Shown here piece by piece: positions 31,220 to 61,411 of a stretch of DNA of 62,364 nucleotides. The stretch lies in IMG/VR virus record IMGVR_UViG_3300028831_000121, positions 1 to 62,364 of that record. One strand, 5' to 3'. The notes beneath the pieces were generated by a model, which saw only the letters and a list, made by a program, of their open reading frames with translations, did not search any database and was not told where the DNA came from. The first letter of the stretch is position 1. The number at the start of each line of letters is the position of its first letter. The DNA comes from a virus. The translations under genes and the position numbers were made by a program.

Positions 31220-31240
31220 GTGGGAGTAGTGGTTTTCATC
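31220..31240 (-). repeat. ATGAAAACC cassette copy
   Basis: Minus strand reads GATGAAAACCACTACTCCCAC. The mini-ORF MKTTTPTIKY runs 31239->31207. Confidence 0.7.
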
Positions 31241-31298
31241 TTCACTAAAAATAAGATTTTCAAGTTTTAATGTCGGCAAAAAGCGTCTAGGCTTTCCT

Positions 31299-31334
31299 CG
31301 GTTGTTATTCTGCAACCATCTTTAGTTGGATGCT
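31299..31334 (+). repeat. Bipartite element copy (box1 CGGTTGTTATTC ... box2 AGTTGGATGCT)
   Basis: Box2 overlaps the stop and last codons of 31322-31687 in antisense. Confidence 0.6.
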
Positions 31335-31687
31335 TCCGCTTCTTCGATCTCAATTTCATCCGGCCACTCGCGACAGTCGTATCCAGTTTCTTTTTCCAGC
31401 CAGACTTCGTATCGCTCCATGATTTCAGCTTGCGTTCGTTGGCAGATATAGCGATGCCAGCTATCCCAGCAAATAGAACGGAATCTTTCCTGCTCATGCT
31501 CAAGACGATCCCAAAGCAGCACCCAAAGTACACGCCACGGGCCACCGTAGATACGGATCAAAACAAAATGGCAGTTTGCCGCGACAAGAAAAGGTGGAAA
31601 CATCTCCGGTTTGCCCGCAACCTTCGTTAGCTCGGCGCAGCGGTTGAAGTACCATTCTCGGTTCGGCGGCTTTGTATTCGGAAGCAT
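31322..31687 (-). CDS. Hypothetical protein (last gene of the leftward operon)
   Basis: 121 aa with SD GGGAG. Trp/Cys-rich. Confidence 0.55.
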   Translation of the reverse strand: MLPNTKPPNREWYFNRCAELTKVAGKPEMFPPFLVAANCHFVLIRIYGGPWRVLWVLLWDRLEHEQERFRSICWDSWHRYICQRTQAEIMERYEVWLEKETGYDCREWPDEIEIEEAEASN

Positions 31688-31872
31688 TCAATCATCTCCC
31701 TGCGTTTCGCGGGCCAGGTTCTCAACAAGTAACGGAAGCTAGTATCTGTTTCCGCATCACCCCTGAATTTTTGAACTTTGATTCCGTAGCTCTGCTGCAA
31801 TACGGTCAACTAACGACCGCTCGAACTGTTCTGAGATCAATTCGATGTTGGCGTTCTCCATAGCAGAGTCGA

Positions 31873-32526
31873 TTATTCCCTGTGCCGCGCCTTGGCTTCT
31901 TCTTTACTTAGTTGGGCTGGTTGAGTAGCAAAGACTGATTCGATGATTGACGCCAGCCGTTTTAGTTCCCATCGTTTATCGCTACATCCTTCACAGGCAG
32001 CATCAGACTCAACGTATATTGAGCACGTGTGCTTTTTGATGTGGCCAGTTACACCGAAATTGTTATCAATCTTCTCTGCTGCTTCTCTCGCCAACTTCTT
32101 TACGTCCTGTTGTGGTTGAGAAACATCAGCGTCTGCCATTGCCTGTAATAGTGATGCAGGAACTATTTCTTTGAGTTGAGCAAGTGCGGGCGGATTCATG
32201 TGGCCGAGCGTCATGTACCACCGCCCGAAATCACGCAGAGCTTTAGCGGCTGGTTGGGGTTGAGTAGCAACGCGAAACGGTTTGTCGGAGTATTCAACTA
32301 CAACGCGCACATACTTACCGTTGAGCATTTCAAGGTCACGCTCTACGTTCGCTACGTTTGAGACGCCCGTTTCTGTCATCGCAACGCCCGTTAAGAACTC
32401 ATGGCCGCACACATCGGCATCGTGCTTCGTGCGCTGTAGTTTAAGTCTGCCTTCGAGTGCTACATAGGTTCGCTCAGGCGGTAGTAGCTCCTCTGCTGCT
32501 TGTGGCGATTCAACTGATTTAGTCAT
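31873..32526 (-). CDS. Hypothetical protein
   Basis: 217 aa from the ATG preceded by AAAGGAG. Confidence 0.6.
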   Translation of the reverse strand: MTKSVESPQAAEELLPPERTYVALEGRLKLQRTKHDADVCGHEFLTGVAMTETGVSNVANVERDLEMLNGKYVRVVVEYSDKPFRVATQPQPAAKALRDFGRWYMTLGHMNPPALAQLKEIVPASLLQAMADADVSQPQQDVKKLAREAAEKIDNNFGVTGHIKKHTCSIYVESDAACEGCSDKRWELKRLASIIESVFATQPAQLSKEEAKARHRE

Positions 32527-32530
32527 TTGC

Positions 32531-32782
32531 TTACTCCTTTGTTGGATAGCCTCGAAACGCATCTAGCAACGCTTCGTCCAGATCACTTCTGAACACCCTT
32601 TTTGTATCGATAGCGGCAAGTTTTCTACTTACCTGCTTGACGACATCCTTCTGCGTTGCCGCCCATCCAACCGCAGTACCAGAAGGACTATGAAATTCAT
32701 ACTCGAAGCCACGCGAGTCTTTGAAGATGGACACAACCACTACCAACTTTCCCTTCACTTCTTTTGATGATTCAGTAGTCAT
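32531..32782 (-). CDS. Hypothetical protein
   Basis: 83-aa ORF in the operon; its start overlaps the preceding gene's stop (ATGA). Confidence 0.5.
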   Translation of the reverse strand: MTTESSKEVKGKLVVVVSIFKDSRGFEYEFHSPSGTAVGWAATQKDVVKQVSRKLAAIDTKRVFRSDLDEALLDAFRGYPTKE

Positions 32783-33093
32783 TGCTTATCCTTACCTCGC
32801 TTAGCTGCTTCTAACGCCGCGATGATCTCGTGCATTTCTGCGAGCGCAGCGCATCCCTGCTTCGTGTCATAGACATCTGGCGGGTTGTCCACAAACTTGT
32901 CTTTGCATTCTCGCGCGATCGCAATCGCTTCATCCCACACCTTTGCCCGTTCTTCTGCTATGGCTGAGGTAACTTTGTCGGCGCGGACATATTCTTGTTG
33001 TGGCAAGTCTGGACGGTCTACCGTGCTGCATACCGCGGCGTAAGGTAGCGGCACCCACACTCGTTCTGGCGCATCGTTTTGTTTGGGAGTCAT
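32779..33093 (-). CDS. Hypothetical protein
   Basis: 104 aa with a 4-nt start/stop overlap. Confidence 0.5.
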   Translation of the reverse strand: MTPKQNDAPERVWVPLPYAAVCSTVDRPDLPQQEYVRADKVTSAIAEERAKVWDEAIAIARECKDKFVDNPPDVYDTKQGCAALAEMHEIIAALEAAKRGKDKQ

Positions 33094-33302
33094 AACTTTT
33101 CCTCTCTGCCGAGGTTGTGCCGTGCATACCTAGCTGCATCACCGGCTTGCGCGAGACTTCTATTACACAACTCCATAAGTGCCAGAGCGGACTTGTGGCT
33201 TCCATCTTCCGTCTCTCTCATAACCCGATGGTGGGCCAGTCGCGCCTTTTCAAGCACCTTTTTAATTGCGGTTTCAACTTCGGCTATATCGTCAACTAAC
33301 AT
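33090..33302 (-). CDS. Hypothetical protein
   Basis: 70 aa, helical, coupled. Confidence 0.45.
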   Translation of the reverse strand: MLVDDIAEVETAIKKVLEKARLAHHRVMRETEDGSHKSALALMELCNRSLAQAGDAARYARHNLGREEKL

Positions 33303-34555: not shown

Positions 34556-34606
34556 AAGCACCTTCAAAGAATTATTTAGTTTCCAGACACGCTACGATTA
34601 ACGAAC

Positions 34607-34644
34607 GGTTGTTGATGGAAACCCACGCCCAGCTTGAGTGCTAA
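34607..34644 (+). repeat. Bipartite element copy (GGTTGTTGATGG ... CTTGAGTGCTA)
   Basis: Box2 ends 1 nt from the stop of 34645-34890 (antisense). Confidence 0.6.
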
Positions 34645-35360: not shown

Positions 35361-35404
35361 TTTATTTTTCTCCCTTGCGCGGACTAGAGTTGAAAATACT
35401 TTTT

Positions 35405-35470
35405 CAGGTTAAGACGCCGGACTAGGGCTTTCCTCGTTTGTTATTTTGCAATCATCCTCACGTTGAATGA
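35405..35470 (+). repeat. Bipartite element copy with CAGGTTAAGACGCCGGAC extension
   Basis: Near-identical left part to 59164-59238. Box2 (CGTTGAATGA) abuts the stop at 35471. Confidence 0.7.
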
Positions 35471-35842
35471 TTACGCGGCAGTAGATTCGCGCCTGTCGGC
35501 GGCGGCAAATGCCTCTTCCCATGTATCGCCCTGTCCCATGATCTCGTTGAAGAGCCCGCTGGCTCTGCCGACGCTGAACCGATAGTGGTGTGCGTCGCCT
35601 TCCGTGTTAGAAATCTGTTGGCGGCACTCACGCCTTTGCTTTAGCAGTTCTTGATACCAGTCAAGCTCTGCCAATCGACGCGCTACCTCTTCTTCAATCC
35701 GTTTGATCTCAGCGCGAGCGTTAAGCACGGCGTCGAGTGCTGTCTTGCGTTGCTCTGGCGATGAGAAGTGGCCGCTGTTGCGCACGTAGAAGGTCTTGCC
35801 CCATCGCTTCTTTGCTTTAGCCACCGCTTGTTGGTTTGTCAT
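35471..35842 (-). CDS. Hypothetical protein
   Basis: 123 aa, coiled-coil centre. Confidence 0.55.
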   Translation of the reverse strand: MTNQQAVAKAKKRWGKTFYVRNSGHFSSPEQRKTALDAVLNARAEIKRIEEEVARRLAELDWYQELLKQRRECRQQISNTEGDAHHYRFSVGRASGLFNEIMGQGDTWEEAFAAADRRESTAA

Positions 35843-36087
35843 TATTTGATCGTCCTCTCAGTGATGAATTTGAAGGTGTAGATACACGCCTCCACTATCC
35901 ATTATAACATTCGAGTCAAATCGACTTGGCCCATTTGGGCCATCCGGCTGCAAGTTTGCTGAATGAATCTTCATTGAAAATAAATATTTGAGATGAAAGT
36001 TGGCCCATGTAGCCATTCAATCTACTCCCGTCTGTTGAAATTCATCATTTAGGAAAAATGTCAGCACAAAACATCATGCTATTCCCT

Positions 36088-36135
36088 GGTTGTTACTGGT
36101 GGCCGCGAAGCGCGGACTGTTACGTTGAAAGCTAC
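36088..36135 (+). repeat. Bipartite element copy (GGTTGTTACTGG, CCGCGAAGCGCGG hairpin, CGTTGAAAGCTA)
   Basis: Box2 ends 1 nt from the stop of the HD gene (antisense). Confidence 0.7.
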
Positions 36136-36756: not shown

Positions 36757-36839
36757 TGGTTAGCCTCCAACTTCCCAACTCGCTCGCTTTCGAGCGGTAC
36801 AACCGATCAAGATTCGTAATAGGTGTAGTGGTTTTCATC
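36757..36839 (-). repeat. ATGAAAACC cassette + GAAA-loop hairpin + box2 immediately upstream of the HD gene start
   Basis: Minus strand reads GATGAAAACCACTACACC...CGCTCGAAAGCGAGCG...GTTGGAGGCTAACCA-ATG. Confidence 0.7.
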
Positions 36840-36922
36840 TCAACTAAAAATCTTTTGTTTTGAGGTTTGTTTTCTCCATTACAGATAAGAATTTAGTGTT
36901 CAGGAACGCTGCGATCTCCGTC

Positions 36923-36966
36923 ACGTTGTTATCCCGCGTTTCTCGCGCCGGTGCGTTGAGTGCTAA
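36923..36966 (+). repeat. Bipartite element copy (ACGTTGTTATCCC, hairpin, CGTTGAGTGCTA)
   Basis: The CTA of box2 is the antisense TAG stop of 36963-37175. Confidence 0.7.
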
Positions 36967-37731: not shown

Positions 37732-37806
37732 TTTGTTTCTCCCTTTAAGTAAAAACCATCAAAATCATTTATGTTGTGCGAGGGCCACAGCATCTCTCTA
37801 GCGTTC

Positions 37807-37846
37807 GCGTGTTATCCCTCTGTCGCCGCTGGTACGTTGACGCTAC
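37807..37846 (+). repeat. Bipartite element copy (GCGTGTTATCCC ... CGTTGACGCTA)
   Basis: The CTA of box2 is the antisense TAG stop of 37843-38100. Confidence 0.65.
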
Positions 37847-38100: not shown

Positions 38101-38185
38101 AAGCCTCCAAGTTAGGCGTCGGCGTTTCGCCGCGCATTTATTCTCGAACCGTTGAATGCCCTGATGCTTTTGTCCGCATTAAACC

Positions 38186-38443
38186 TTAATCCAAACACGT
38201 ACAGAGATAATCTGACTTCTGACAGCACGTCATAACTTCTTTTGAAATTTCACCTAAGCCCTGACATTCAGGACATGACATAGTTTGTTCTTCATAAGGG
38301 CGATTAACTCTTGAGGGCCATTCATCTGGAATAGTTCCTTTACCTTCACAGCGTTTGCAGTCAATGACGATCTCGATCATCTCTGCTAGTTCCTGCTGTC
38401 TGAGTTCTATAGCAGCGGCCATGTTGTCGTTTGCTACTGACAT
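38186..38443 (-). CDS. Small protein with two DnaJ-type CxxCxGxG zinc-finger motifs
   Basis: Contains CKRCEGKG and CPECQGLG. 85 aa. Confidence 0.55.
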   Translation of the reverse strand: MSVANDNMAAAIELRQQELAEMIEIVIDCKRCEGKGTIPDEWPSRVNRPYEEQTMSCPECQGLGEISKEVMTCCQKSDYLCTCLD

Positions 38444-38925
38444 TAAATAAAATCCTTTTCAAACCAATTTTGTTCAGACGCCTGACCGTGATCGGGTTTG
38501 GTTGTTGAAAGCGCGGAAGCCGACGCATCGCGTTGAGTGCTCGGGTTAGTAAGAGCGAGCGCGGCGCGGGCCAGTTCAGTTCCATGTTGAGCGAGTCGCC
38601 AAACGCACGGCTCGCCCGCATCGTCGCAGCTTCCGTCACACACGTCAGCCGCCGCTCTCATTGCCAAGAAGCAGCCTTTTATTTCCTGAAGCGAGTCATC
38701 AAGTAAATCCCCGCGCACATAGGCAATATCGTTGTCATAGTATTTGTGATCGTGCACGACGGTATTTGCGTTGACCTCAACGAAGCGCAGTGACGCACCT
38801 TTCTGCCCAATCCACACTTTGTTCGGCGCGGGAAACGATGGAGCAGCACTCGTCTCCGGTGTCTTTTGAGACCCTGAACTTGGAATGTGGGAGTTCTGGT
38901 TTTCATTACTTAAATTCTTATCCAT
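38443..38925 (-). CDS. Hypothetical protein with NENQNSH leader
   Basis: 160 aa with SD AAAGGAG. The first 20 codons are the ATGAAAACC cassette read in the NENQ frame. The C-terminal 34 codons read through a bipartite element copy. Confidence 0.5.
   Translation of the reverse strand: MDKNLSNENQNSHIPSSGSQKTPETSAAPSFPAPNKVWIGQKGASLRFVEVNANTVVHDHKYYDNDIAYVRGDLLDDSLQEIKGCFLAMRAAADVCDGSCDDAGEPCVWRLAQHGTELARAALALTNPSTQRDASASALSTTKPDHGQASEQNWFEKDFI
38499..38543 (+). repeat. Bipartite element copy inside the 3' part of ORF 38443-38925
   Basis: Reads GGTTGTTGAAAGCGCGGAAGCCGACGCATCGCGTTGAGTGCT. Confidence 0.6.
38887..38907 (-). repeat. ATGAAAACC cassette copy
   Basis: Minus strand reads GATAAGAATTTAAGTAATGAAAACCAGAACTCCCACATTCC. 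Confidence 0.75.
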
Positions 38926-38989
38926 TTCTGATCTACTCCTTTATGGGTCTGATTCCGTCTGAACGCTATCTGTGTTTCATCGTGGGAAT

Positions 38990-39018
38990 ACTCTATTCTC
39001 AAACCAACAATTAGTCAA
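38990..39018 (-). promoter_or_regulatory. Leftward promoter (TTGACT-17-TAGAGT)
   Basis: The -35 at 39013-39018 overlaps the left arm of the 12-bp inverted repeat. Confidence 0.45.
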
Positions 39019-39088
39019 CAACTATTTCTAACGTTCTGCATGTTATTTCTTATCAACGAGTTAAACCGTTTTACAAAATAGTTGTTGA
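39015..39088. promoter_or_regulatory. 12-bp perfect inverted repeat TCAACAACTATT / AATAGTTGTTGA (50-nt spacer), operator candidate
   Basis: The arms lie at 39015-39026 and 39077-39088. Each overlaps a -35 hexamer of the divergent promoters. Confidence 0.6.
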
Positions 39089-41558: not shown

Positions 41559-41580
41559 GGAGGCGGACACATTACTAAAT

Positions 41581-41672
41581 CCCTTGTCAGAGATAAAATG
41601 AGAATTTTCTGAAATACCTATTGACACGGAGGCGGCACTTGATGTTAAATGCGCCCTGTCAGATTTAACATG
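41581..41672. promoter_or_regulatory. Immunity-switch operators and rightward promoter
   Basis: Promoter TTGACA (41621)-18-TTAAAT (41645). Inverted repeat TGTTAAAT/ATTTAACA (41643-41670). Direct repeat CCYTGTCAGA at 41581 and 41653. Confidence 0.55.
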
Positions 41673-41723
41673 CATCACGTTATGAATATCCAACTCTACA
41701 ATCATCACCTTTTGGCGTACCAA

Positions 41724-42195: not shown

Positions 42196-42242
42196 ACTTG
42201 TTGAGAGGGCGGCGCACAGAACGCGCCGACACGGTGACTTGA
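42196..42242 (+). repeat. Element copy (CTTGTTGAGAGG, GGCGCACAGAACGCGCC hairpin, GACACGGTGACTTGA) abutting the ATG at 42243
   Basis: Shares AAGCGTCTAG(G)CTT(T)CCT with 31281-31298 and its hairpin with 42975-42998. Confidence 0.55.
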
Positions 42243-48618: not shown

Positions 48619-49025
48619 AGCAATGCACAGGGCCATGTAGACAAGTCTTACCGCTATCTGAATTCAGCGGGTGTTCATGGTCGTTAGATGGACTTCAATA
48701 CGCTTGTAAGAAGTGTAAAGCGGCATACCAGAGACAATATCGAAAGGTTGATGCCACGATGAACGACGAAGTAGCAGGCGAACAAGAGACTTTATTTCCA
48801 ATACGCCAAGATCGGTTAGAGGCTACGTTGCGGAGCGGGACGCGGAAACTTAGTAGTGGCGGTAGCGAGGTCTTTTCCCATTCACCTGAATCTGAATGTT
48901 CTGAATTGTTTTCTTCTTCTAGTTTCTCTTGGGCTGGAGCTATATCAGAAAAGTTTTTGAGGTTGGGGAATAAGAATTCAAATAATGAAAACCAGACCGC
49001 CCACATTCCACGATTAGGGTTTTGA
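48615..49025 (+). CDS. Zinc-ribbon protein whose 3' end reads through a cassette copy
   Basis: Contains CTGPCRQVLPLSEF...CKKCK. The last ~45 codons are low-complexity and end in NENQTAHIPRLGF. Confidence 0.4.
   Translation: MKQCTGPCRQVLPLSEFSGCSWSLDGLQYACKKCKAAYQRQYRKVDATMNDEVAGEQETLFPIRQDRLEATLRSGTRKLSSGGSEVFSHSPESECSELFSSSSFSWAGAISEKFLRLGNKNSNNENQTAHIPRLGF
48984..49004 (+). repeat. ATGAAAACC cassette copy
   Basis: Reads GAATAAGAATTCAAATAATGAAAACCAGACCGCCCACATTCC. The mini-ORF MKTRPPTFHD runs 48985-49017. Confidence 0.75.
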
Positions 49026-50419
49026 AAGACAAAACGTTGAAGGCTTACCAAACATTTTTAGAAAAGAAGCGAGTAACGGTCGCGCCGAGTGGCTTTGATC
49101 CCGACGCGCTTAACCCGAAGTTGTTTGAGTTTCAGCGGGACATTGATCGTTGGGCTTTGAGCCGTGGTAAAGCCGCGCTGTTTGAAGATTGTGGGCTTGG
49201 CAAGACACCACAACAACTAGAGTGGGCCAATCAGGTTGCCCGCGAATCAAGGCGGCCTGTACTCATTCTCGCGCCGTTAGCGGTATCAAAACAGACGGAG
49301 CGCGAGGGCGCGAAGTTTGATATTCCGGTCAAAGTTGTGGCGTCGGATATTGAAGTTAAGAAAGGCCCGAATGTTTACGTCACCAACTACGAAAAACTCC
49401 AACACTTCGACGCGGCGAGATTCGGTGGTGTAGTCCTAGATGAAAGTTCCATCCTGAAATCTTTCACGGGCGCAACCCGAAACCTACTGATCGAGAAGTT
49501 CAAAACGACACCAATGAAGTTGTGTTGCACGGCAACCCCGGCCCCGAACGACTTCATGGAATTAGGAAATCATTCTGAGTTCTTAGGGGTACTTACCCGC
49601 ACGGAAATGCTATCGACGTTCTTTGTCCACGATGGCGGCGATACCGCGAAGTGGAGATTGAAGGGCCACGCAGAGGAAGAATACTGGAAATGGATTTGTC
49701 AGTGGGCCGTGATGATTCGCAAGCCTTCCGATCTTGGCTACGCCGATTCAGGGTTTGAACTGCCACCGCTGAAACTTCATCACCACGTAGTCGAGGGTAA
49801 ACCGTCTGAGGGTTTTCTGTTTCAAGTTGAAGCGCAGACATTGATGGAACGGCGACAGGCAAGGCGAGCGAGCCTAGAAGAAAGAGCAAACATGCTCGCG
49901 GAGATCGTCGCCAATAAACCGGATGAGCCGTGGTTGATTTGGTGCGACTTAAACGACGAGGGCGATCTAGCAGAAAAGCTAATTCCTAATTCCGTGCAAG
50001 TCGCTGGTCGGCATACGGACCAACAAAAAGAAGATCGCATGATGGGATTCAGTGACGGTAAGCATCAAGTTCTAATTTCAAAGCCAAGCATCGCGGGCTA
50101 CGGAATGAACTGGCAGCACTGCCCGAACGTCGCGTTTCTTGGTTTGTCCGATAGTTGGGAGATGTACTACCAGGCGATTCGCAGAGTTTGGCGGTTCGGA
50201 CAAACCCGCGAAGTGCATTGTCACATCATCACGTCCGAGTCAGAAGGCGCGGTAGTTAAGAACATCGAACGGAAAGAAAAAGACGCAACTCGCATGGCAA
50301 TCGAGATGGCGAAACACATGAGCGTTTACAGCACGGACGTTATTCATAGAACGGTACGCACCGGCGACTATTACGAGGCAAGCAAACCGATGGCTTTGCC
50401 GGAATGGATAAGAGCATGA
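49022..50419 (+). CDS. SNF2-family helicase
   Basis: Motif I DCGLGKT, motif II VVLDESS, motif VI AIRRVWRFGQ. TTG start overlaps the preceding stop. Confidence 0.75.
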   Translation: MKDKTLKAYQTFLEKKRVTVAPSGFDPDALNPKLFEFQRDIDRWALSRGKAALFEDCGLGKTPQQLEWANQVARESRRPVLILAPLAVSKQTEREGAKFDIPVKVVASDIEVKKGPNVYVTNYEKLQHFDAARFGGVVLDESSILKSFTGATRNLLIEKFKTTPMKLCCTATPAPNDFMELGNHSEFLGVLTRTEMLSTFFVHDGGDTAKWRLKGHAEEEYWKWICQWAVMIRKPSDLGYADSGFELPPLKLHHHVVEGKPSEGFLFQVEAQTLMERRQARRASLEERANMLAEIVANKPDEPWLIWCDLNDEGDLAEKLIPNSVQVAGRHTDQQKEDRMMGFSDGKHQVLISKPSIAGYGMNWQHCPNVAFLGLSDSWEMYYQAIRRVWRFGQTREVHCHIITSESEGAVVKNIERKEKDATRMAIEMAKHMSVYSTDVIHRTVRTGDYYEASKPMALPEWIRA

Positions 50420-51363: not shown

Positions 51364-51587
51364 CGTTCAAGATCAAAACACAGCGTTACCCAACGCACAC
51401 AGGTGAGCGGCCCTTGAGTTTTGCGATCTACTACGGGCGAAAGTTTCTGGCGTATAGCTGGACACGCGACGGAGCAGAGAGAGGACTTGCGGAAATTAGA
51501 TCGAGCAGCATTCAACCCGAAGATGATTGCAAGACAACAACTGAGGAAAGCCATGATGTTTTGAGTTCGCAATCGGCATCTACTTGA
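51360..51587 (+). CDS. Hypothetical protein
   Basis: 75 aa, ATGA-coupled. Confidence 0.45.
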   Translation: MTFKIKTQRYPTHTGERPLSFAIYYGRKFLAYSWTRDGAERGLAEIRSSSIQPEDDCKTTTEESHDVLSSQSAST

Positions 51588-53919: not shown

Positions 53920-53939
53920 CAGACTGATAAGGAGAAGAA

Positions 53940-54062
53940 ATGGCAGCACAAATTAAGCGAGTTTGGTTATTTCTGAGAATCGTGTGGCGCAAGAATCAAG
54001 ACTACTGTTTAGGCGTAAAGCTGGCTTGGAAAGTGGCAGGGATTATGTATCCAGCAGCCTGA
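53940..54062 (+). CDS. Hypothetical 40-aa hydrophobic/basic peptide
   Basis: Preceded by CTGATAAGGAGA, the same translation initiation context as the gene at 54078. Confidence 0.3.
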   Translation: MAAQIKRVWLFLRIVWRKNQDYCLGVKLAWKVAGIMYPAA

Positions 54063-54077
54063 TAAGGAGAGAGAGAA

Positions 54078-54536
54078 ATGGAAAATAAAAATCAGTTGGT
54101 AAATGAAAACCAGACCTCCCACAACGCAAGTTCAGGGACTCTCCGAGCCGCGCCTAACGGCGACGGACAATCAGGTCTTTCGCGTGAGGCTTTCCTTCGC
54201 CGTTGCGAGACGCTTTTCGATGCTGGTTTAGCAGCGCCGTACCGCCTTCGTCTGCTTGATAAATGGCTCGACTTTGTGTGCCGTTTTGAGGGCGGTCAAA
54301 TGCGATACGTTGCGGACTTCATTGAAGATGAGGCGACTCGAACCATGCGCTTCAGTAATGGCCGCACACTAGCGAACGACGCGGACGGGTACGCGCTTGT
54401 GCAGTTCGCCGCGATCCTAACTCATCCATGCCAGTTGTGCGCCGAAGACTTGAACGCATGGTGGACTCGCGCCGCCTTTTGCGAACACAAGCGTCAAGAC
54501 ACCAACACGTCCGTTGCGGACGGTACAACTCAGTAG
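54078..54536 (+). CDS. Hypothetical protein with NENQTSH leader
   Basis: 152 aa with SD AAGGAG. Codons 1-22 are a cassette copy shared with 38443-38925. Confidence 0.55.
   Translation: MENKNQLVNENQTSHNASSGTLRAAPNGDGQSGLSREAFLRRCETLFDAGLAAPYRLRLLDKWLDFVCRFEGGQMRYVADFIEDEATRTMRFSNGRTLANDADGYALVQFAAILTHPCQLCAEDLNAWWTRAAFCEHKRQDTNTSVADGTTQ
54102..54122 (+). repeat. ATGAAAACC cassette copy
   Basis: Reads GTAAATGAAAACCAGACCTCCCACAACGCAAGTTCAGGGACTC. Confidence 0.75.
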
Positions 54537-54831: not shown

Positions 54832-54920
54832 CGGTCAACGTACTCCGTCTGCGTAGCAGCGGCTCGGAGAGTTCGAGTAGTTAGCACTGAGAGGTTTTTG
54901 CAGGAAAGAGATATATGGTT

Positions 54921-55520
54921 TTAAGCAACATGTGCCCACGTTCTACGAGCAACAATCGCGGTCACGCTCCATTTACATATTCCGTACTCCGTAGCAATGC
55001 GGGTTCGGTTTTCGCCCGCAGCGTGTCTGGTGCGGATCTCTTTCACTTGGGCCTCATTGAGTTTCCGGTTGTTTCCGCCCTTGCCGGCGCGGCCCTTTGC
55101 CGCCATGTCTCTCATGTTGTCCGCGTTAGTGCCGAGAAACAAATGTGCAGGGTTACAGCACGGCGGGTTGTCGCACTTGTGCAGGACAAGAAGGCCGTCA
55201 GGAATGGGGCCACGAGCAAGGAACCACGCAAGCCTGTGGGCCAACCGGCAACCTTCAACTTTTCTTCCCAAGTCTCCGTAGCCGTCACGGTTTTTGCAGT
55301 TTATCCAAGGCCAGCAGCAGCCCAGCGTAGGGCGAATAAGTGGCCCATTAGTATTTATGTTTTCCCAAAACCTTTCCCGCCACGGACGCGACCTTCGCAT
55401 GTAATCCCTGCACTTGGTCGAGCAGTAAAGTCTGTTGGCCGAGGGTTTGGCGGTAAAGCGTGCGGCGCAGTATCCGCATGTAACTTCGATCAGTTTTGCT
55501 TTATTCTTTCTATCGGGCAT
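54921..55520 (-). CDS. HNH_3-type homing-like endonuclease (free-standing, opposite strand)
   Basis: Contains RDGYGDL...AHRLAWFLARGPIPDGLLVLHKCDNPPCCNPAHLFLGTNADN plus a C-terminal HTH. Confidence 0.8.
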   Translation of the reverse strand: MPDRKNKAKLIEVTCGYCAARFTAKPSANRLYCSTKCRDYMRRSRPWRERFWENINTNGPLIRPTLGCCWPWINCKNRDGYGDLGRKVEGCRLAHRLAWFLARGPIPDGLLVLHKCDNPPCCNPAHLFLGTNADNMRDMAAKGRAGKGGNNRKLNEAQVKEIRTRHAAGENRTRIATEYGICKWSVTAIVARRTWAHVA

Positions 55521-55700
55521 GGCGTGACCTCCGAGACAGGTTGTGCTGTGTCAAGGCTCGTTCAGTCGTTTCAGCGATTGTTCGAGCCGCTTTATTTTAA
55601 CACAGGAACGCGGTGCCGGATATGAACAAGATAATTCTGATTCTAGGATTAACAGGAACTTGGATCTACTTCAGGTTCAACAGGAAAAGAATTTAGGGTG

Positions 55701-56075
55701 ATGAAGACAACTACCCGCTTGCCACAGTTTCGAGAACCTAGCGGCTCCGAAGCGGAGTCCGTCATGGTTGACGCTACCCCGCGCATCACAGCGCACGCTC
55801 AAGAGCGAGCAAAGAAGCGAGTAGGGTTAAACGCTCACGCGCTGGAACGGGTAGCAACCAAGGCTCTGAATAACGGCGTAACGCACGGAGAAACCAGCGG
55901 TCGGTTGAATCGCTACTTGACGAAATTGTATCTAACTCATGAGAAAGGCAATAACAACCGGATATATGGTGAGCATATATTCATCTTTCAGGGAAACATC
56001 TTGATTACAGTTTTGCAGTTACCGCACGACTTAAAGAACGCGGCAAGGGGAGCGATGGCGCGACACTTGAGATGA
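55701..56075 (+). CDS. Hypothetical protein (MKTTT start)
   Basis: 124 aa. Its start, GGAAAAGAATTTAGGGTGATGAAGACAACTACC, is a degenerate cassette. Confidence 0.5.
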   Translation: MKTTTRLPQFREPSGSEAESVMVDATPRITAHAQERAKKRVGLNAHALERVATKALNNGVTHGETSGRLNRYLTKLYLTHEKGNNNRIYGEHIFIFQGNILITVLQLPHDLKNAARGAMARHLR

Positions 56076-57356: not shown

Positions 57357-57478
57357 CCTTCAAGTTACCAGCGGTACACGGGTCAACAACCGTTCGTTAA
57401 TCGCTCGTTCTTGACACCTAAAATCTGGAAGGATTGATTCTTTTACCTAAAGTAGAAAAACAGAAAAGGATCAAGGGT

Positions 57479-57550
57479 AATGAAAGCACAGAACTCCCAC
57501 TACTACGATTTGAGATGCGCGGCGAAGCGCCGACGTACAAGTTGAGTGCT
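57479..57550 (+). repeat. Full composite module: cassette + GAAG-loop hairpin + box2, 5 nt before the ATG at 57556
   Basis: Reads AATGAAAGCACAGAACTCCCAC...CGGCGAAGCGCCG...GTTGAGTGCT. Collinear with the minus-strand module at 31163-31240. Confidence 0.7.
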
Positions 57551-57555
57551 GACCT

Positions 57556-57813
57556 ATGAAAACACCAAAGCTCGAAACATGGTACGAGTGGTTTGATTAT
57601 TGGTGTCTGCGATTATTCGTTCTCGTACTCTACTCGCTGGTGTACTTGGTGTTTCAGGTAGCGGCTTATTGGAGCGCGTTTCACTTTGATTTTTGGTCTT
57701 GCGCGAAGGCCGTATCGATGTGCTGGCTTGCAGGCTTTCTGACGTTAGTTCAGTTCTGGTTCTTCAACGCGGTTTACAGATTCTTTGAGCGCTTTCGCTT
57801 TGATCCCGCTTAG
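57556..57813 (+). CDS. Small membrane protein
   Basis: 85 aa with 2-3 TM helices. Confidence 0.5.
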   Translation: MKTPKLETWYEWFDYWCLRLFVLVLYSLVYLVFQVAAYWSAFHFDFWSCAKAVSMCWLAGFLTLVQFWFFNAVYRFFERFRFDPA

Positions 57814-58582: not shown

Positions 58583-58882
58583 CGAAGTGGGAATAGGGCG
58601 TTATCGCTTGCCGTCGTTCTAACGAAGCAAGGGGACGACTAACTCAGCAACGACTAAAAGTCCGCGAAATACCTGAGCGATGCCGGCGCTTCTGATGTAT
58701 AATTGCCTTGCGTGGACGAAATATGTGCCCTGAGCCTTAAAGTAGCTCGCGCCATTCCACAATGGTTCGAGGGCAATCCTTGAACGGCGGCATCCGAGAC
58801 TGACCGCTTTCAAATAGACTCGGTGGCGGTGGTTGTGGGTCAGTCGGGTGTAAGCACTCGCTTTGACACGCTCTCCACAGTG

Positions 58883-58919
58883 AAGCCCCTTGGGAAACTG
58901 AGGGGCTTTGCTGTTTCTG
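58883..58919 (+). terminator. Intrinsic terminator inside the late control region
   Basis: AAGCCCCT-TGGGAAACTG-AGGGGCTT followed by TGCTGTTTCTG. Confidence 0.55.
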
Positions 58920-58923
58920 CCGG

Positions 58924-58990
58924 GATGTCACGTTTATAAATTTCAATCTCTAATAAAACGGCACACTTTGTAGCGGATAAACGTGACATC
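58924..58990. repeat. 14-bp perfect inverted repeat GATGTCACGTTTAT / ATAAACGTGACATC (39-nt spacer)
   Basis: The arms lie at 58924-58937 and 58977-58990. Confidence 0.8.
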
Positions 58991-59163
58991 GCCACTCAGC
59001 CTACCTAGACGGTCGCGCTTTGTAGCGACCGCCACACCTAGCCCGACACCCTGCCACGGTTTTGTCCCTCGCACCCCTGAAGTCTTACTTTTCGTTTTTC
59101 CTGCTAGCGAGTAGTTGGCTTTCCTACCTTCTGAAAACTTAAAAGTCCAACAAAGTTTAAGAT

Positions 59164-59238
59164 TCAGGTTAAGACGCCGGACAACTTTGCCCCGACGTTG
59201 TTATCCCTGAGTCCCACGCAGGGGCGTTGAAAGCTAAC
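59164..59238 (+). repeat. Bipartite element copy with CAGGTTAAGACGCCGGAC extension, upstream of the endolysin
   Basis: Reads TCAGGTTAAGACGCCGGAC...GACGTTGTTATCCC...CCCACGCAGGGG...CGTTGAAAGCTAAC. The ATG follows 9 nt later. Confidence 0.7.
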
Positions 59239-59245
59239 GAAACGA

Positions 59246-59781: not shown

Positions 59782-59799
59782 GTTAGATAGGAGAACAAA

Positions 59800-60198
59800 A
59801 TGCTTGTAAGTGCCATTTGTATCTACGCGGTAATGCTCTTTGTGTTTCAGGACACAGTTGTTGGCCCAGTGGCGGGCGGCGGGATGTCGGGTCAGGCGAT
59901 TGTTACGGTATCCGCTGCGGTCGTGGCTTTAACACAGCTATTGAAGTTCGCCAACGTCATCAATGATCGGCGCGGGCCGCTTGGCGTCCTAGTTCTCGCC
60001 TTTTTGGGCGTAGCGTTTTGGGGGTGGACTACAGGGGATTTCTCACGCGCAACGGCGTTCGCTTACTTCGCTGGCTGGATTGCTGTTGCCACGTCTGCCG
60101 CTGGCGTTTTTGGATTTACTCGCGCCGCGCCTGAGGCCGTGACAGGAACGAAGTCACCACCCGCACCTCCGGGAGCCGGAGCTAACACGACAGTTTAG
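59800..60198 (+). CDS. Holin candidate (multi-TM membrane protein)
   Basis: 132 aa with about 4 TM helices and SD GGAGA. Adjacent to the endolysin. Confidence 0.5.
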   Translation: MLVSAICIYAVMLFVFQDTVVGPVAGGGMSGQAIVTVSAAVVALTQLLKFANVINDRRGPLGVLVLAFLGVAFWGWTTGDFSRATAFAYFAGWIAVATSAAGVFGFTRAAPEAVTGTKSPPAPPGAGANTTV

Positions 60199-60208
60199 AA
60201 AGGAATTT

Positions 60209-60661
60209 ATGAAACTCGCAAAACGATCCGCAGTAGCACTTCTAATCGTCCTGAGTCTGTTTGCTGGCGCATGTAGCCCCAACAAGCTACGCGAGGCCCG
60301 GAAAGCGGCCCACCGCATTCAGGTGGTTACTGACGCCTCGATTGATACCACCTCAACCCTTTTCCATGACGGAGTAATCAGCAAGGAAAAAACGAATCTA
60401 ATTGCCCGGGCCTTACTCAAAGTTAATTCAGGCAACAAGGTTCTGATTGACAAGGCTGAGGCCGCAACTGCCGATACGCCGGAAGTCAGAGCCGATCTAA
60501 TCGCACAACTGAAAGTTGTCGAGGACGCGGTAAAAGAATTGAAAGGTTTAGGCGTACTCGGCATCAAGTCTAAAGACGGATCGCTGGCTTTTGATTCGGC
60601 GATAAACGCTTTGGATGCGAGCATTGCAATTATTCAATCCGTGATGGCGGGAGGTAAATAG
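60209..60661 (+). CDS. Lipoprotein (spanin-like position)
   Basis: Signal peptide with lipobox-like LFAGAC. 150 aa, helical. Confidence 0.55.
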   Translation: MKLAKRSAVALLIVLSLFAGACSPNKLREARKAAHRIQVVTDASIDTTSTLFHDGVISKEKTNLIARALLKVNSGNKVLIDKAEAATADTPEVRADLIAQLKVVEDAVKELKGLGVLGIKSKDGSLAFDSAINALDASIAIIQSVMAGGK

Positions 60662-60662
60662 A

Positions 60663-60866
60663 ATGGGCGACATAACAGCGATTCTTGCTTTGATAAACGC
60701 GGCTATCAAGATTGGCGGCGACATCGTTCCTATTGCACTTCGGGCTTACGCGGCGCTGAAGTCTGAGACGGGAATGACGGACGCGGAGCTGATCGCAGCC
60801 AGTCGCAAGTTGAACGATGAGGACGCGGCGAAACTCGAAGCGTTGATCGCGGAAACCAATGCGTAA
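60663..60866 (+). CDS. Hypothetical protein
   Basis: 67 aa with a hydrophobic N-terminus. Confidence 0.45.
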   Translation: MGDITAILALINAAIKIGGDIVPIALRAYAALKSETGMTDAELIAASRKLNDEDAAKLEALIAETNA

Positions 60867-60999
60867 ACCTCAAGACTTAACAATCCGAAATGCTCAGGCA
60901 TCAAAGAAACGAGATGATGCCCTGTTAGCCCGTATTCGGAAGCTGGAAGCAGCGATGAAGTCAGTTAATAAAGTTCTACGGAAGTATGGACTGAAATGA
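60859..60999 (+). CDS. Hypothetical 46-aa basic helical protein
   Basis: Its ATG overlaps the preceding stop. Below the cutoff of the ORF track. Confidence 0.3.
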   Translation: MRKPQDLTIRNAQASKKRDDALLARIRKLEAAMKSVNKVLRKYGLK

Positions 61000-61109
61000 G
61001 TCTACTAATGCTCTGGCCGTTTCCGGCGACAATAATTGGATTGATGGTCTGGGCCATAGTGGATTATCTATTGAACCACAGAGCGGAGAAGTGGGATAAA
61101 GGGACATGA
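60996..61109 (+). CDS. 37-aa single-TM peptide
   Basis: ATGA-coupled at both ends. Sequence LWPFPATIIGLMVWAIVDYLL. Confidence 0.3.
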   Translation: MSLLMLWPFPATIIGLMVWAIVDYLLNHRAEKWDKGT

Positions 61110-61198
61110 AGTGTCTTATCACTGACAACTTAAAAGTAGGAAGTGTGCATATCTTCTTTAAGGGAGAGAAAACTTGTCAGTGTGGGGATAAAACTCGG

Positions 61199-61411
61199 AT
61201 GTTAAGTAATGAAAACCAGAACCGTGCTTCTCAAACTGCTGAGAAGCTAGCGCGCAAAGCGTCGGACAATCTTGAATGGTTTTCCACGAATGAAACCATA
61301 TTACGAAGAATCAGGAATCACGATTTATCAGACACTCAACGAAATGTCTTTAGAAATAGCAGTCTAGGAAAGGCTGGGGGCTTTTGTCCGCATGACCCTA
61401 AAGTTTTATGA
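61199..61411 (+). CDS. Hypothetical protein with NENQN leader (the start may be 61106)
   Basis: MLSNENQNRASQ... The start sits in a cassette copy. Confidence 0.4.
   Translation: MLSNENQNRASQTAEKLARKASDNLEWFSTNETILRRIRNHDLSDTQRNVFRNSSLGKAGGFCPHDPKVL
61208..61223 (+). repeat. ATGAAAACC cassette copy
   Basis: Reads AGTAATGAAAACCAGAACC. The mini-ORF MKTRTVLLKLLRS runs 61209-61250. Confidence 0.65.

Follow-up and report, generated by a model that had tools for sequence, protein, structure and literature searches.

A repeated, co-oriented leader-like cassette tied to gene starts in the non-structural half of a temperate phage genome

What is the short repeat that recurs beside gene starts in one half of this phage genome, and is it conserved as nucleic acid or as peptide? 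The window analyzed is the whole of the viral record, 62,364 nucleotides; the phage is a temperate, soil-type one with a siphovirus-like genome of 62 kb. The original prediction listed about ten copies of the repeat and proposed several roles (a translation-initiation or leader-peptide cassette, a regulator or RNA-binding site, a recombination joint) without choosing between them.

The repeat is genuine and under selection. Its core, ATGAAAACCA, occurs six times against 0.17 expected from an order-3 Markov model of the genome, and the 14-mer with up to two mismatches was found six times against 0.65 expected, a count reached in 0 of 100 shuffles. Searching with an nhmmer profile that spans positions -16 to +24 of the motif returned exactly eight significant matches (E 4e-7 to 3e-5; the ninth-best match had E = 0.66), with box ATGs at 31239, 36838 and 38906 on the minus strand and at 48985, 54103, 55701, 57480 and 61209 on the plus strand. 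The seven core copies originally listed were all found at their positions and on their strands, and a degenerate copy at 55701 proved to be a genuine member. Two further degenerate copies, at 34555 and 54613, are ordinary ATG-AAA (MK...) gene starts outside the profile family. As had been claimed, every copy follows the direction of the local genes (8/8), the three minus-strand copies lying in the leftward operon at 31-39 kb and the five plus-strand copies at 49-61 kb. All eight are in the non-structural half and none is in the structural half (1-30 kb). By our own calculation, the chance of complete co-orientation is 2 x 0.5^8 = 0.008 and that of complete confinement to the non-structural half about 0.52^8 = 0.005. 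Each column across ATGAAAAC is conserved in eight or seven of the eight copies, compared with three to five of eight in the flanks; part of the apparent conservation is ascertainment, because the copies were found via the box, and box-less decayed cassettes exist too.

The motif is the best-conserved box inside a cassette of ~100 nt, the parts of which are ordered as AU-rich lead-in, box, U(U)GAGA, GC hairpin, 3' box and gene start, an architecture common to all eight copies in the cassette alignment. The intact lead-in consists of a Shine-Dalgarno (SD) sequence and ATG GAT AAG AAT TTA AGT; the shared upstream flank noted originally (GATAAGAATTTAAGT-like) is real and belongs to the same repeat. 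The box, with consensus ATGAAAACCA(G/C)(A/T)AC(T)CCCAC, is followed by a spacer of about 15-25 nt ending in U(U)GAGA, by a short GC hairpin with an AAG or AAAG loop and variable yet complementary stems, and by a 3' box that holds the SD (GTTGAGTGCTGACC, or GGAGG). Real or ancestral gene starts, fixed by homologues and by sequence, lie 52, 63, 64, 74, 76 and 82 nt downstream of the box ATG, and the predicted tie of the cassette to gene starts is supported. In an alternative arrangement, the box is joined in frame to the gene and lengthens the protein at its N-terminus.

Five of the eight copies have a perfect hairpin with 5 bp or more at +35 to +49, compared with 13% of random windows, and in four of them it is GC-rich, compared with 3.6%. 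The five stems all differ (CACGCG, CGCTCG, CGGCG, CTCCG and GTTTTG) and each is still complementary. Reading by eye revealed G-U pairs in two stems, the extended one of the 55701 copy and the imperfect one of the 61209 copy; on the opposite strand these pairs would be C-A mismatches. The hairpins are strand-specific, with differing but complementary stems, although a role in single-stranded DNA would explain their conservation equally well. In all eight copies the box is predicted to be unpaired; no conserved pairing was found between it and the SD or flanks, and for the cassette neither conserved long-range pairing nor an Rfam family was found.

The cassette is fused to unrelated genes, which fits both a shared translation-initiation cassette and a recombination joint, as originally proposed. 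Copy 1, of type F1 (38824..38924, minus strand, box ATG 38906; cassette HMM E = 9e-16), lies within the first ~33 codons of ORF 38443-38925 (160 aa), with which the leftward operon begins; the P_L -10 hexamer (38995-38990) is about 65-160 nt upstream of the copy. The long ORF is here the NENQ frame, and the copy forms a 62-nt repeat, 84% identical, with 48970-49031. At the F1 copy 54084..54185 (plus, box ATG 54103; E = 2e-12), translation in the NENQ frame extends the 152-aa ORF 54078-54536 by 33 residues at the N-terminus. The homologues of this ORF (n = 24), with lengths of 105-126 aa, start at query residue ~34, and the only in-frame ATG, GTG or TTG codons before that residue are ATG 54078 (codon 1) and TTG 54096 (codon 7). 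Only 17 N-terminal residues are common to the 160-aa and 152-aa proteins. The F1 copy 48967..49057 (plus, box ATG 48985; E = 8e-10) has a hairpin at 49019-49035 (GTTTTG-AAAGA-CAAAAC) and a 3' box at 49036-49049 (GTTGAAGGCTTACC), inside which lies the likely start of an SNF2-type helicase, TTG 49037 (MKAY...); relatives of the helicase begin at MKAY and have no motif upstream. The F1-like copy 61192..61291 (plus, box ATG 61209; E = 2e-14) sits between lysis-region genes, with an imperfect hairpin at 61252-61262.

The F2 copy 36767..36856 (minus, box ATG 36838; E = 9e-11) has a hairpin at 36781-36796 (CGCTCG-AAAG-CGAGCG) and a 3' box at 36758-36771 (GTTGGAGGCTAACC), and the downstream gene, a dNMP phosphatase, starts at 36756, 82 nt past the box ATG. 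A second F2 copy (31158..31257, minus, box ATG 31239; E = 2e-12), 90% identical to it over 30 nt, lies at the end of the leftward operon, with a hairpin at 31184-31198 (CACGCG-AAG-CGCGTG) and a 3' box that retains a remnant ATG (31175). In the F2-like copy 55683..55785 (plus, box ATG 55701; E = 2e-11), the 3' arm of the hairpin (55745-55757, CTCCG-AAG-CGGAG) contains the GGAG of the SD, and the real gene start is ATG 55764; this gene has 1,299 homologues, and the alignments to the best of them open at query residues 23-29 and at residues 2-5 of the homologue. The remaining copy, an F1/F2 hybrid (57462..57559, plus, box ATG 57480; E = 4e-9), has a 1-nt insertion in the box, a hairpin at 57520-57532 (CGGCG-AAG-CGCCG), a 3' box at 57541-57554 (GTTGAGTGCTGACC) and a gene start at 57556.

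Conservation in relatives, which had been suggested as a check, was found. In L084, a relative with 79% amino acid identity in the primase and about 66-73% nucleotide identity in BLAST-aligned genes, 29 of the 30 nt of the box are kept at the syntenic place, joined to a non-homologous 119-aa protein and between flanks that cannot be aligned. Eight codons (NLSNENQN) are identical in nucleotides between the two phages, with no synonymous change, whereas each of the next five conserved residues (PSSGS) is encoded by a different codon in the two (0/8 versus 5/5; Fisher p about 8e-4, our own calculation). The lack of synonymous change in the box, beside codons that have all changed, indicates selection on the nucleotide sequence. 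The box is also retained in copies with a closed NENQ frame (36838, 55701) or a shifted frame (57480 and the relative L136), and it is therefore the nucleotides, not the peptide, that are conserved. These observations support the action at the nucleic acid level originally proposed. Further cassettes comprised of box, hairpin and GTTGAGTG-ATG are present in L136 and in another relative, L085; the homologous genes of relatives form tightly packed operons without such spacers.

The original prediction held the repeat not to be assignable to any known element. This is fair for family membership, but close analogues have been published, and on our best reading the closest are the SAS/ESAS and PeSL elements; 'start-associated' phage repeats without a known function are already on record. 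SAS/ESAS elements belong to Cluster K mycobacteriophages, and Microbacterium Cluster EF phages have analogues of them (PMC3203893, PMC7302621). Like the repeat described here, they are asymmetric, are present in about 10-19 copies restricted to non-structural genes, keep a single orientation relative to transcription, are tied to the starts of unrelated genes, have an upstream inverted-repeat element and are lineage-specific, and the function is not known in either case. The position and SD content of the cassette's 3' box (GTTGGAGGCTAACC, a few nt before the ATG) are also similar to those of SAS. The sequences are unrelated, however (SAS is GGGATAGGAGCCC), and the box lacks an SD and lies off the ribosome-binding site, 52-82 nt upstream or within an ORF. 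Furthermore, the stems here differ yet are complementary, whereas RNA pairing was judged to be unsupported by the ESAS repeats, and the present cassette can be translated as an N-terminal extension. PeSLs are promoter-early stem-loop mobile regulatory cassettes of T4-type phages (PMC2839356, PMC4122927): small, composite, co-oriented cassettes with a stem-loop and SD, repeated between accessory ORFs, linked to the replacement of unrelated genes and serving as points of homologous exchange. PeSLs have a strong sigma-70 promoter and a terminator stem-loop, whereas no promoter consensus was found in the present cassette and its hairpins are without U-tracts. The order of parts and the host and phage type also differ, and recombination at the present cassettes is hypothetical. 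The stoperators of mycobacteriophage L5 and Cluster A are likewise short, asymmetric, multi-copy sites with an orientation that follows transcription; as cited in PMC3203893, they match the repressor operator at the early promoter and occur in both genome arms, including structural genes. The box, in contrast, is absent from structural genes and unrelated to the phage's candidate operators (AAATAGTTGTTGA, present twice).

Our tentative explanation for these observations is a portable leader or translation-initiation cassette that acts at the mRNA level, the single-stranded box being a candidate cis-recognition site. The ~100-nt cassette would act on the transcript, and copies of it would have been placed ahead of unrelated early and accessory genes; where a gene's own start was lost, or an upstream start was open, the cassette would be read through as an N-terminal tail. 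The box may be bound by a trans factor, either an RNA-binding protein of phage or host or the 30S subunit/S1, with the box as a standby or loading site, and the bound factor would set the translation or stability of the downstream cistron. If so, the box-bearing genes would form one post-transcriptional regulon. Homology between copies may also let them act as recombination joints. Comparable RNA sites are the lambda-type nut sites, in which boxA and boxB combine a linear RNA box with a short hairpin with a purine-rich loop on early transcripts, and the T4 RegA-type translational operators, which overlap the AUG of many early genes. The cassette likewise combines a linear box with a short purine-loop hairpin, and one copy is near the start of the leftward early operon; the box is nevertheless unlike boxA, the loops are AAG or AAAG rather than a GNRA-like pentaloop, and there are eight or more sites per genome rather than one per operon. 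No N-, Q- or RegA-like protein was detected in the phage, and no RNA-binding regulator, sigma factor or antiterminator was found among the early ORFs with Pfam and PHROGs, most of these ORFs being unannotated. The distance between the box and the codon that actually initiates, -82 to +25 nt, is loose for a classical translational operator.

Alternatively, the box could be a DNA-level transcription signal, which we consider unlikely. It could be a promoter read by an RNA polymerase that is phage-modified or carries an unknown sigma factor, the cassette then being a 'moron'-like combination of promoter, 5'-UTR hairpin and SD; or it could bind a protein that blocks or activates transcription according to orientation, as stoperators do. 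The roughly 26 nt conserved between phages are the size of a phage promoter, the box is co-oriented, confined to non-structural genes and located 52-82 nt upstream of gene starts, which would place the hairpin in the 5' UTR, and stoperators and SAS obey the same orientation rule. A weak sigma-70-like match (TTGAGG-18-AATAAT, 48957-48986) also overlaps one copy. However, no consistent -35/-10 or ECF-type hexamers were found across copies, and sigma-70-like sites are no more frequent than expected (11 against 12.8 and 7 against 12.4, for a consensus that may not be the host's). No RNA polymerase or sigma gene was found in the phage, a promoter at the 54103 box would yield transcripts without the only usable start codon of its host gene, and the candidate operators of the divergent promoter region do not resemble the box.

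Somewhat less probable still is a functionless box, the copies being relics of the duplicated or recombined 5' end of one gene and the box a crossover zone kept identical by exchange. Subfamilies of copies have 30-62 nt in common at 84-90% identity, the 57480 copy is a hybrid of F1 and F2, 61209 and 38906 have exactly 21 nt in common between unrelated flanks, and F2 upstream regions resemble a decayed SD-ATG-GAT-AAG start. The phage encodes a recombination-type exonuclease, and PeSL repeats are documented recombination points. This is countered by the 29/30 identity in L084 with no synonymous change beside codons that have all changed, by the persistence of the box in at least four phages whose cassettes have otherwise diverged, and by the higher column conservation of ATGAAAAC than of its flanks.

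Two readings at the peptide level fare worse. Comparisons with homologues and relatives show the NENQ frame to be the translated one in at least two to three copies; it is translated at 38906 and 54103, probably at 61209, and in L084, and PSSGS is kept between phages through synonymous changes, including switches of serine codon family. A shared N-terminal peptide, M..(N)LSNENQN(SHI)PSSGS.., acting as a targeting, degradation or interaction tag on unrelated early proteins is nonetheless improbable: the frame is stopped immediately before the box at 36838, closed at 55701 and ended after 19 residues at 48985, the lack of synonymous variation in the box codons is unexplained by peptide constraint alone, and no homologues were found outside the lineage of the phage. 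More doubtful again is a regulatory leader peptide opened by the box ATG (MKT(T/R)(T/P)P...), the translation or stalling of which would control the downstream hairpin and gene through attenuation or coupling. The ATG, the AAA second codon and the unstructured A-rich context are conserved, ORFs of 10-13 codons stop just before the hairpin in three copies, and third-position variation is in weak excess (34 against 22 and 20; p about 0.1, our own calculation). The mini-ORFs first described as conserved do exist, but the ATG-frame ORFs range over 10, 10, 13, 21, 42, 51, 75 and about 124 aa, their stops are not fixed relative to the hairpin, and the frame is shifted in 57480 (by the insertion) and L136; a Thr/Pro-rich leader or stalling peptide is therefore unsupported. 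Most copies also lack an SD before the box ATG, 38925 and 54078 are the sites of a strong upstream SD-ATG in another frame, only two of the eight copies contain PP, and neither an alternative terminator/antiterminator pair nor a U-tract after the hairpins was found.

Small non-autonomous mobile elements moving as single-stranded DNA (REP/PATE/MITE-like), with an orientation that follows replication, would account for the small strand-specific GC hairpins with a CGAAG/CGAAAG core, which we take to resemble very stable DNA mini-hairpins, for the orientation flip, which falls between 38.9 and 49.0 kb, as does a putative origin (iteron-like repeats at 46.0-46.1 kb), and for inverted 'arm' motifs (TAGCACTCAAC and GTTGAGTGCTAAC, 30 sites against 15.9 expected), but are very improbable: sharp ends, terminal inverted repeats and target-site duplications are absent around the copies, which are built into gene starts at a regular distance, no transposase was found, and cognate arm pairing was significant in one (the 36838 cassette) of 20 intergenic regions tested, which include six of the eight cassettes.

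A degenerate box, CCCACGATGAAACACAGA, was read from the sequence at 38969..38986 (minus), directly downstream of the P_L -10 hexamer, and is below significance in the profile search. A box-less decayed cassette lies at 38101..38140 (minus), where UUCGAGAA, a hairpin (38120-38132, CGGCG-AAA-CGCCG) and CTTGGAGGCTT precede ATG 38100, and similar box-less modules are present at ~31688-31745 (minus), ~42184-42242 (plus) and ~42965-43017 (plus).

The core motif (the box) is enriched over random expectation, and its co-orientation with local transcription, claimed in the original prediction, was borne out. The 14-mer ATGAAAACCAGAAC was found six times with no more than two mismatches, against 0.65 expected, and none of 100 shuffled sequences reached six; ATGAAAACCA, which is among the two most over-represented 10-mers, has six copies against an expectation of 0.17. 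Membership was decided with a profile that spans positions -16 to +24 relative to the ATG embedded in the box and that matched the window eight times (E = 4e-7 to 3e-5; the next best match had E = 0.66). Named by the position of that ATG, the copies are 31239, 36838 and 38906 on the minus strand, and 48985, 54103, 55701, 57480 and 61209 on the plus strand. The motif itself was therefore sound, but its copies number eight rather than about ten, and the sites at 34555 and 54613, taken earlier for degenerate members, fall outside the profile matches and are ordinary ATG-AAA gene starts. Each of the eight copies runs in the direction of the genes around it, and the structural half of the genome has none of them; they are confined to 31-62 kb. 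When they were aligned, ATGAAAAC was conserved in 7-8 of the 8, against 3-5 of 8 for the flanks.

The window begins and ends with an exact direct repeat of 141 nt (1-141 = 62224-62364) and therefore represents a complete genome of 62,223 bp, circular or terminally redundant; the length of the repeat is, at a guess, that of the assembler's k-mer overlap. Structural genes (terminase, portal, protease, major head, tape-measure, tail) occupy 1-30.4 kb on the plus strand, and a leftward operon, in which most genes are unknown but one encodes a dNMP phosphatase, occupies 31-38.9 kb on the minus strand. The rightward genes, on the plus strand from ~39 kb, encode an HTH protein, exonuclease, replication initiator, primase/helicase, SNF2-type helicase, methyltransferase, large serine integrase, lysozyme and the lysis region. 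A tRNA scan of the window found no tRNA gene, GenBank phages had no DNA similarity to it, and exact-protein contig look-ups with two of its proteins returned no record. As a capsid search found no relatives in genome contigs and the relatives of the helicase are spread over many phyla, the host could not be inferred.

Self-comparison revealed that the copies share far more than the motif core. Identity is 84% over 62 nt between 38860-38921 and 48970-49031, 88% over 40 nt between 38868-38907 and 54102-54141, 90% over 30 nt between 31223-31252 and 36822-36851, and 100% over 21 nt between 38893-38913 and 61202-61222. In an alignment of ~105 nt the order of parts was identical in all eight copies (cassette HMM E = 9e-16 to 4e-9): an AU-rich lead-in, the box, a spacer of 15-25 nt ending in CA(A/C)G(T/A)T..(T)GAGA or CAGGG, a short hairpin, a 3' box carrying the Shine-Dalgarno (SD) sequence (its forms include GTTGAGTGCTGACC, GTTGGAGGCTAACC and GTTGAAGGCTTACC) and a start codon. 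The copy at 57480 is a hybrid.

Perfect hairpins of at least 5 bp were present at +35 to +49 in five of the eight cassettes, compared with 13% of random 56-nt windows, and GC-rich ones in four, compared with 3.6%. Their loops are alike, and their stems differ in sequence yet remain complementary (CACGCG-AAG-CGCGTG, CGCTCG-AAAG-CGAGCG, CGGCG-AAG-CGCCG, CTCCG-AAG-CGGAG and GTTTTG-AAAGA-CAAAAC). G-T(U) pairs, read by eye, occur at 55701 (in the extended stem) and at 61209 (in the imperfect one). On the opposite strand they would be C-A, which assigns the structure to the sense strand. RNAalifold gave no consensus on the MAFFT alignment because the hairpins lie at variable offsets, and they were counted directly instead. 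Structure prediction leaves the box unpaired in all eight copies, and pairing of its flanks into an enclosing stem was no better than in shuffles (mean z = -0.37). A long-range pairing of TAGCACTCAAC, located at the upstream stop codon, with GTTGAGTGCTAAC of the 3' box was rejected: it was found in the 36838 cassette only (-26 kcal/mol, 2.5% of shuffles, a level of 2.5-3.5% being seen also in two unrelated intergenic regions), and five other cassettes tested were at shuffle level. Box-less modules consisting of hairpin and SD, at ~38101-38140 (-), 31688-31745 (-), 42184-42242 (+) and 42965-43017 (+), are decayed cassettes.

For annotation, it should be borne in mind that most of the box ATGs do not begin a gene. 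The ATG at 55701 opens a 124-aa ORF with 1,299 homologues, the best of which align their own residues 2-5 with its residues 23-29; this places the real gene start at ATG 55764, 63 nt past the box ATG, and the GGAG of that gene sits in the 3' arm of the hairpin. In the 152-aa ORF (54078-54536), homologues of 105-126 aa match from residue ~34 onwards. A CTT stands at the position of their Met, and the only in-frame starts before residue 34 are ATG 54078 and TTG 54096; the 54103 cassette is therefore translated as a 33-residue N-terminal extension, in the second frame through the box (the NENQ frame, encoding ...NLSNENQN...). The relatives of the SNF2-type helicase begin at MKAY, which corresponds to TTG 49037 within the 3' box, and have no motif upstream. 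The distance from box ATG to gene start is 82 nt at 36838, 76 nt at 57480 and 64 nt at 31239, where the start is a remnant; over the copies, the box either precedes a real or ancestral start by 52-82 nt or sits 19-25 nt into an ORF. Only the first 17 residues are common to the 152-aa ORF and the 160-aa ORF at 38925, and a homologue search with the 160-aa protein found none. One 5' module is thus attached to unrelated genes, either as an untranslated leader or as an in-frame fusion. Near the 54103 copy, an SD region, CTGATAAGGAGA..AAATGG, occurs twice within 140 nt, at 53923-53942 (5' of a 40-aa ORF) and at 54059-54080 (5' of the 152-aa ORF).

The original prediction called for a search of related phage genomes. 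The exact AATGAAAACCAGAMCNCCCACA, too strict a pattern, had no match in viral and metagenome contigs; the shorter TAAGTAATGAAAACCAGAAC finds one relative. Related phages were found via the primase/helicase. In one of these, L084, the primase has 79% amino acid identity and the BLAST-aligned genes ~66-73% nucleotide identity; in the leftward region BLASTN aligned only a 30-nt patch (window 38893-38922, L084 3206-3235; 29/30). The patch lies at the syntenic distance from the exonuclease gene and opens a 119-aa protein (METNDQNLSNENQNPSSGSSEKGAEAG...) that is non-homologous to the 160-aa protein of the window beyond the tail. Eight codons, AAT TTA AGT AAT GAA AAC CAG AAC, are identical in the two phages, whereas the codons of the next five conserved residues, PSSGS, all differ (CCA/CCT, AGT/TCT, TCA/AGC, GGG/GGA, TCT/TCG). 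This contrast (0/8 against 5/5 codons changed; Fisher p ~8e-4, own calculation) implies that the NENQ frame is translated in L084 and that the nucleotides of the box are under a further constraint of their own. After the box, L084 has UGAGAAGG and then a GCGCC-GAAGCG-GGCGC hairpin; a degenerate second copy lies on a paralogous N-terminus and a third degenerate copy further left (L135). Two more distant relatives have GATGAAGACCCAGAACTCTCAC, GCCC-TAGGAC-GGGC and AGGAGGTTGAGTGATG, with 66 nt from box ATG to ATG (L136), and AATGAAGACAACCCCTCTCAT followed by GGTGAAGGTTGGATGG, with 74 nt (L085). The cassette was absent from ~1.5 Mb of other related loci. L084 also has a repeated gene-start region of its own, CGTCTGAACA..C.GATTGAGATTT with GAAGGAG and ATTAGTTATGGAAACGAA, before three consecutive leftward genes (2814-2847, 3256-3289 and 3907-3932, all minus strand), preceded in two cases by the palindrome AAGCGCGAGCGCTT (3237-3260 and 3584-3608, minus strand); repeated translation-initiation regions therefore seem habitual in the lineage.

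The co-orientation of the copies, the strand-specific hairpins, the regular distance to ancestral starts and the frame-independent nucleotide constraint suggest a cis-acting signal that is read on the transcript. The reading preferred here, at somewhat less than an even chance, is that the cassette is a portable leader and translation-initiation module acting on mRNA. The accessible, sequence-specific box would be a recognition or loading site on the transcript, followed by the small hairpin and then by the SD box of the served gene, and its reader would be an RNA-binding protein, of phage or host, or else the 30S subunit/S1 at a standby site. An extension of this reading is a previously undescribed post-transcriptional regulon in a lineage of uncultivated temperate phages, in which a dedicated RNA-binding factor, encoded by phage or host, would read the 26-nt single-stranded box (selected for its nucleotides even where it is coding), compensatory hairpin and SD box as a graftable operator that is also a gene-shuffling vehicle. 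This extension is on the unlikely side; if it were true, any gene that received the module would gain its regulation, its start codon and an N-terminal tail that is disordered.

That the box is instead a promoter or regulator site acting on DNA is rather unlikely. Sigma-70-like sites were at or below shuffled expectation and none was common to the copies, although the promoter type of the host, whatever that host is, may differ. By eye, no ECF-type (AAC...CGT), sigma-54 or Bacteroidetes-type motif was seen at fixed spacing, and Pfam and PHROGs detected no RNA polymerase, sigma factor or antiterminator, most early ORFs being unannotated. The inter-copy homology, the hybrid 57480 and the unrelated genes in two phages make it plausible that the cassette is secondarily a recombination joint; this role and that of a shared cassette, as first suggested, are both partly supported. 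A pure recombination relic is improbable. There is only a slight chance that the shared feature is a protein-level N-terminal tag: the NENQ frame is translated at 54103 and in L084, but it is closed at 36838 and 55701.

A leader or stalling peptide read from the box ATG, another role proposed originally, is very improbable. Attenuators and stalling peptides have a conserved short ORF whose stop is fixed relative to alternative terminator/antiterminator hairpins. In the cassette, the ORFs in the frame opened by the box ATG (the MKT frame) range from 10 to 124 aa, their stops are not fixed relative to the hairpin, which is single and has no U-tract, and a 1-nt insertion shifts the frame at 57480 and in L136. 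Most copies have no SD 5' of the box ATG, PP occurs in two copies only, and variation by codon position in the MKT frame (34/22/20) has a weak third-position bias that is not significant (p ~0.1, own calculation). A single-stranded DNA mobile element whose orientation is set by replication is scarcely credible; the copies have no sharp boundaries, unlike the defined ends of MITE/REP/PATE-type elements, and pairing of cognate arms was significant in 1 of 20 intergenic regions tested. Other candidates were dismissed by reasoning, namely Chi-like sites (ill-suited to the length of the box and to its absence from half the genome), attP/invertase sites (eight copies, no identical core beyond the box) and a frameshift signal (no slippery heptamer, hairpin too distant); downstream-box pairing with 16S rRNA was considered and dropped.

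SAS/ESAS and their Microbacterium analogues are asymmetric, oriented repeats at the starts of unrelated non-structural genes and of unknown function (PMC3203893, PMC7302621). The cassette is like them in its restriction to non-structural genes and its single orientation (8/8). SAS is a 13-bp asymmetric motif of Cluster K mycobacteriophages that contains the RBS and lies 3-8 bp 5' of the start codon (PMC3203893), whereas the box lacks an SD and stands away from the RBS; of the parts of the cassette, the separate 3' box alone has a SAS-like position. The SAS consensus GGGATAGGAGCCC and the 17-bp inverted repeats of ESAS are unrelated to the cassette, in which stems are 5-6 bp and loops 3-5 nt. 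PeSL copies, known from T4-type phages, flank variable ORFs and have a documented role as recombination joints (PMC2839356, PMC4122927); here, as judged from sequence only, the cassette is on unrelated genes within and between phages, and one copy is hybrid. The strong sigma-70-type early promoter of PeSLs had no counterpart shared by the copies in the promoter scan, with the same proviso as to host promoter type. PeSLs also have a stem-loop that terminates transcription; the cassettes do have hairpins, with no T-run after them. A terminator scan in the transcribed orientation picked up none of these hairpins, the sole match to one, 38120-38132, being on the opposite strand, and intrinsic terminators were not enriched.

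The L5 stoperators have an orientation rule in common with the cassette, but they have the asymmetric sequence of the repressor's operator at the early promoter and are bound by the phage repressor, which blocks elongation in one orientation, whereas the candidate operators here, AAATAGTTGTTGA, are unrelated to the box; near P_L, the leftward-operon promoter (-10 at 38995-38990), there is only a degenerate box, after the -10 hexamer. Lambda nut combines a boxA (CGCTCTTA-like) with a 5-bp hairpin that follows after 8-10 nt and has a GNRA-like pentaloop; the phage N protein is involved. The cassette has no boxA-like sequence, its box-to-hairpin distance is 35-49 nt and its loops are AAG, AAAG or AAAGA; Pfam and PHROGs found no N-like protein. 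Rfam gave no match at the gathering threshold over the whole window, and none at E <= 5 on any cassette. As the box is away from the RBS and is not the operator sequence, and as the cassette has neither a recognisable sigma-70 promoter nor boxA/boxB, it is not a member of the SAS/ESAS, PeSL, stoperator or nut families. It belongs to the same general kind, that of lineage-specific, oriented, start-associated regulatory repeats of phage early regions; that kind is already known, and a role as a regulatory signal is what is proposed here.

Oriented repeats at phage gene starts, SAS/ESAS and related, have been on record for more than ten years, with no mechanism assigned to them. A good experimental entry point is offered here by the constraint on nucleotides within coding sequence, the compensatory hairpins and the grafting onto unrelated genes, with unusually clean handles in the frame-independent constraint on the box, the compensatory stems and the natural non-coding, in-frame and decayed versions of the cassette. 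If the box were an RNA operator, the phage could place newly acquired genes under common control by copying the leader cassette, and odd N-terminal extensions and long spacers in compact phage operons would be explained.

Other co-oriented repeat families occupy the same spacers of the window, as found by self-comparison, whereas related phages pack their genes tightly and have almost no such modules; in its collection of intergenic repeats this genome is thus unusual. One family, GATGATTGCA(A/G)A.AACAAC.GAGGAAAGCC, is at gene boundaries at 31290-31339 (-), 35426-35476 (-), 51507-51552 (+) and 61431-61463 (+). A tiny ORF (ATGATGTTTTGA) follows the repeat ending at 51552, and the same GCATGATGTTTTG recurs at 36067-36094 (-). 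A second module, CCAGCG.CGA.AGAGGGATAACA(AC)CG..CG.TAGAG.GATGC, is at 37787-37832 (-) and 42612-42657 (+), with further sites at 36922-36935 (-), 34595-34615 (-) and 57383-57403 (+). It has an internal direct repeat, TAGAGGGAT, ~22 nt apart, and the related TCAACAACCGTTCGTTAATCG is present as two exact 21-mers; modules of this type usually begin right at the upstream stop codon (TAGC..TCAAC).

P_L is TTGACT-17-TAGAGT (39018-38990); divergent from it is a likely P_R, TTGAAT-17-TATAAA, directly followed by the HTH gene at 39122, which is nearly leaderless. An exact pair of AAATAGTTGTTGA copies in inverted orientation, at 39015-39027 (-) and 39076-39088 (+), overlap or abut the -35 regions of P_L and P_R and are probably the operators of the switch; weaker, reversed copies (TCAACAACCGTTC) are in two intergenic cassettes (34603, 57383). 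What looks like a second immunity-type divergent region (41172-41933) lies 2.5 kb to the right of the first, where a 183-aa HTH_31 (XRE/CI-like) protein (41172-41723, minus strand) faces a 94-aa ORF (41649-41933, plus strand) with TTGACA-N17-TGTTAA directly 5' of its ATG. Direct repeats of ~34-48 nt with 78-nt spacing at 45992-46141 (46030-46063/46108-46141; 46016-46063/46098-46141) look like origin iterons and sit within the replication-initiator-like gene 45646-46584. The first ~66 codons of the primase/helicase ORF 46376-48340 overlap the 3' end of that gene, and relatives align only from residue ~67 on, so the annotated start is probably too far upstream. A homing-endonuclease-like gene (HNH_3 and HTH; 54921-55520, minus strand) is antisense in the long spacer 54832-55763, which ends in the 55701 cassette, and a second HNH protein is encoded at 44040-44702 (+). 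Late regulation may be the role of the 660-nt non-coding stretch 58583-59245, which precedes the lysozyme gene (59246). The stretch includes hairpins resembling terminators (one is CCCCTTGGGAAACTGAGGGG, with a T-rich tail after it) and TGATGTATAAT, which is like a TG-extended -10. It also holds anti-oriented intergenic modules of the leftward type, with 59163-59182 being an exact 20-mer of 35403-35422 and GGGATAACAACG at 59194-59207 (-).
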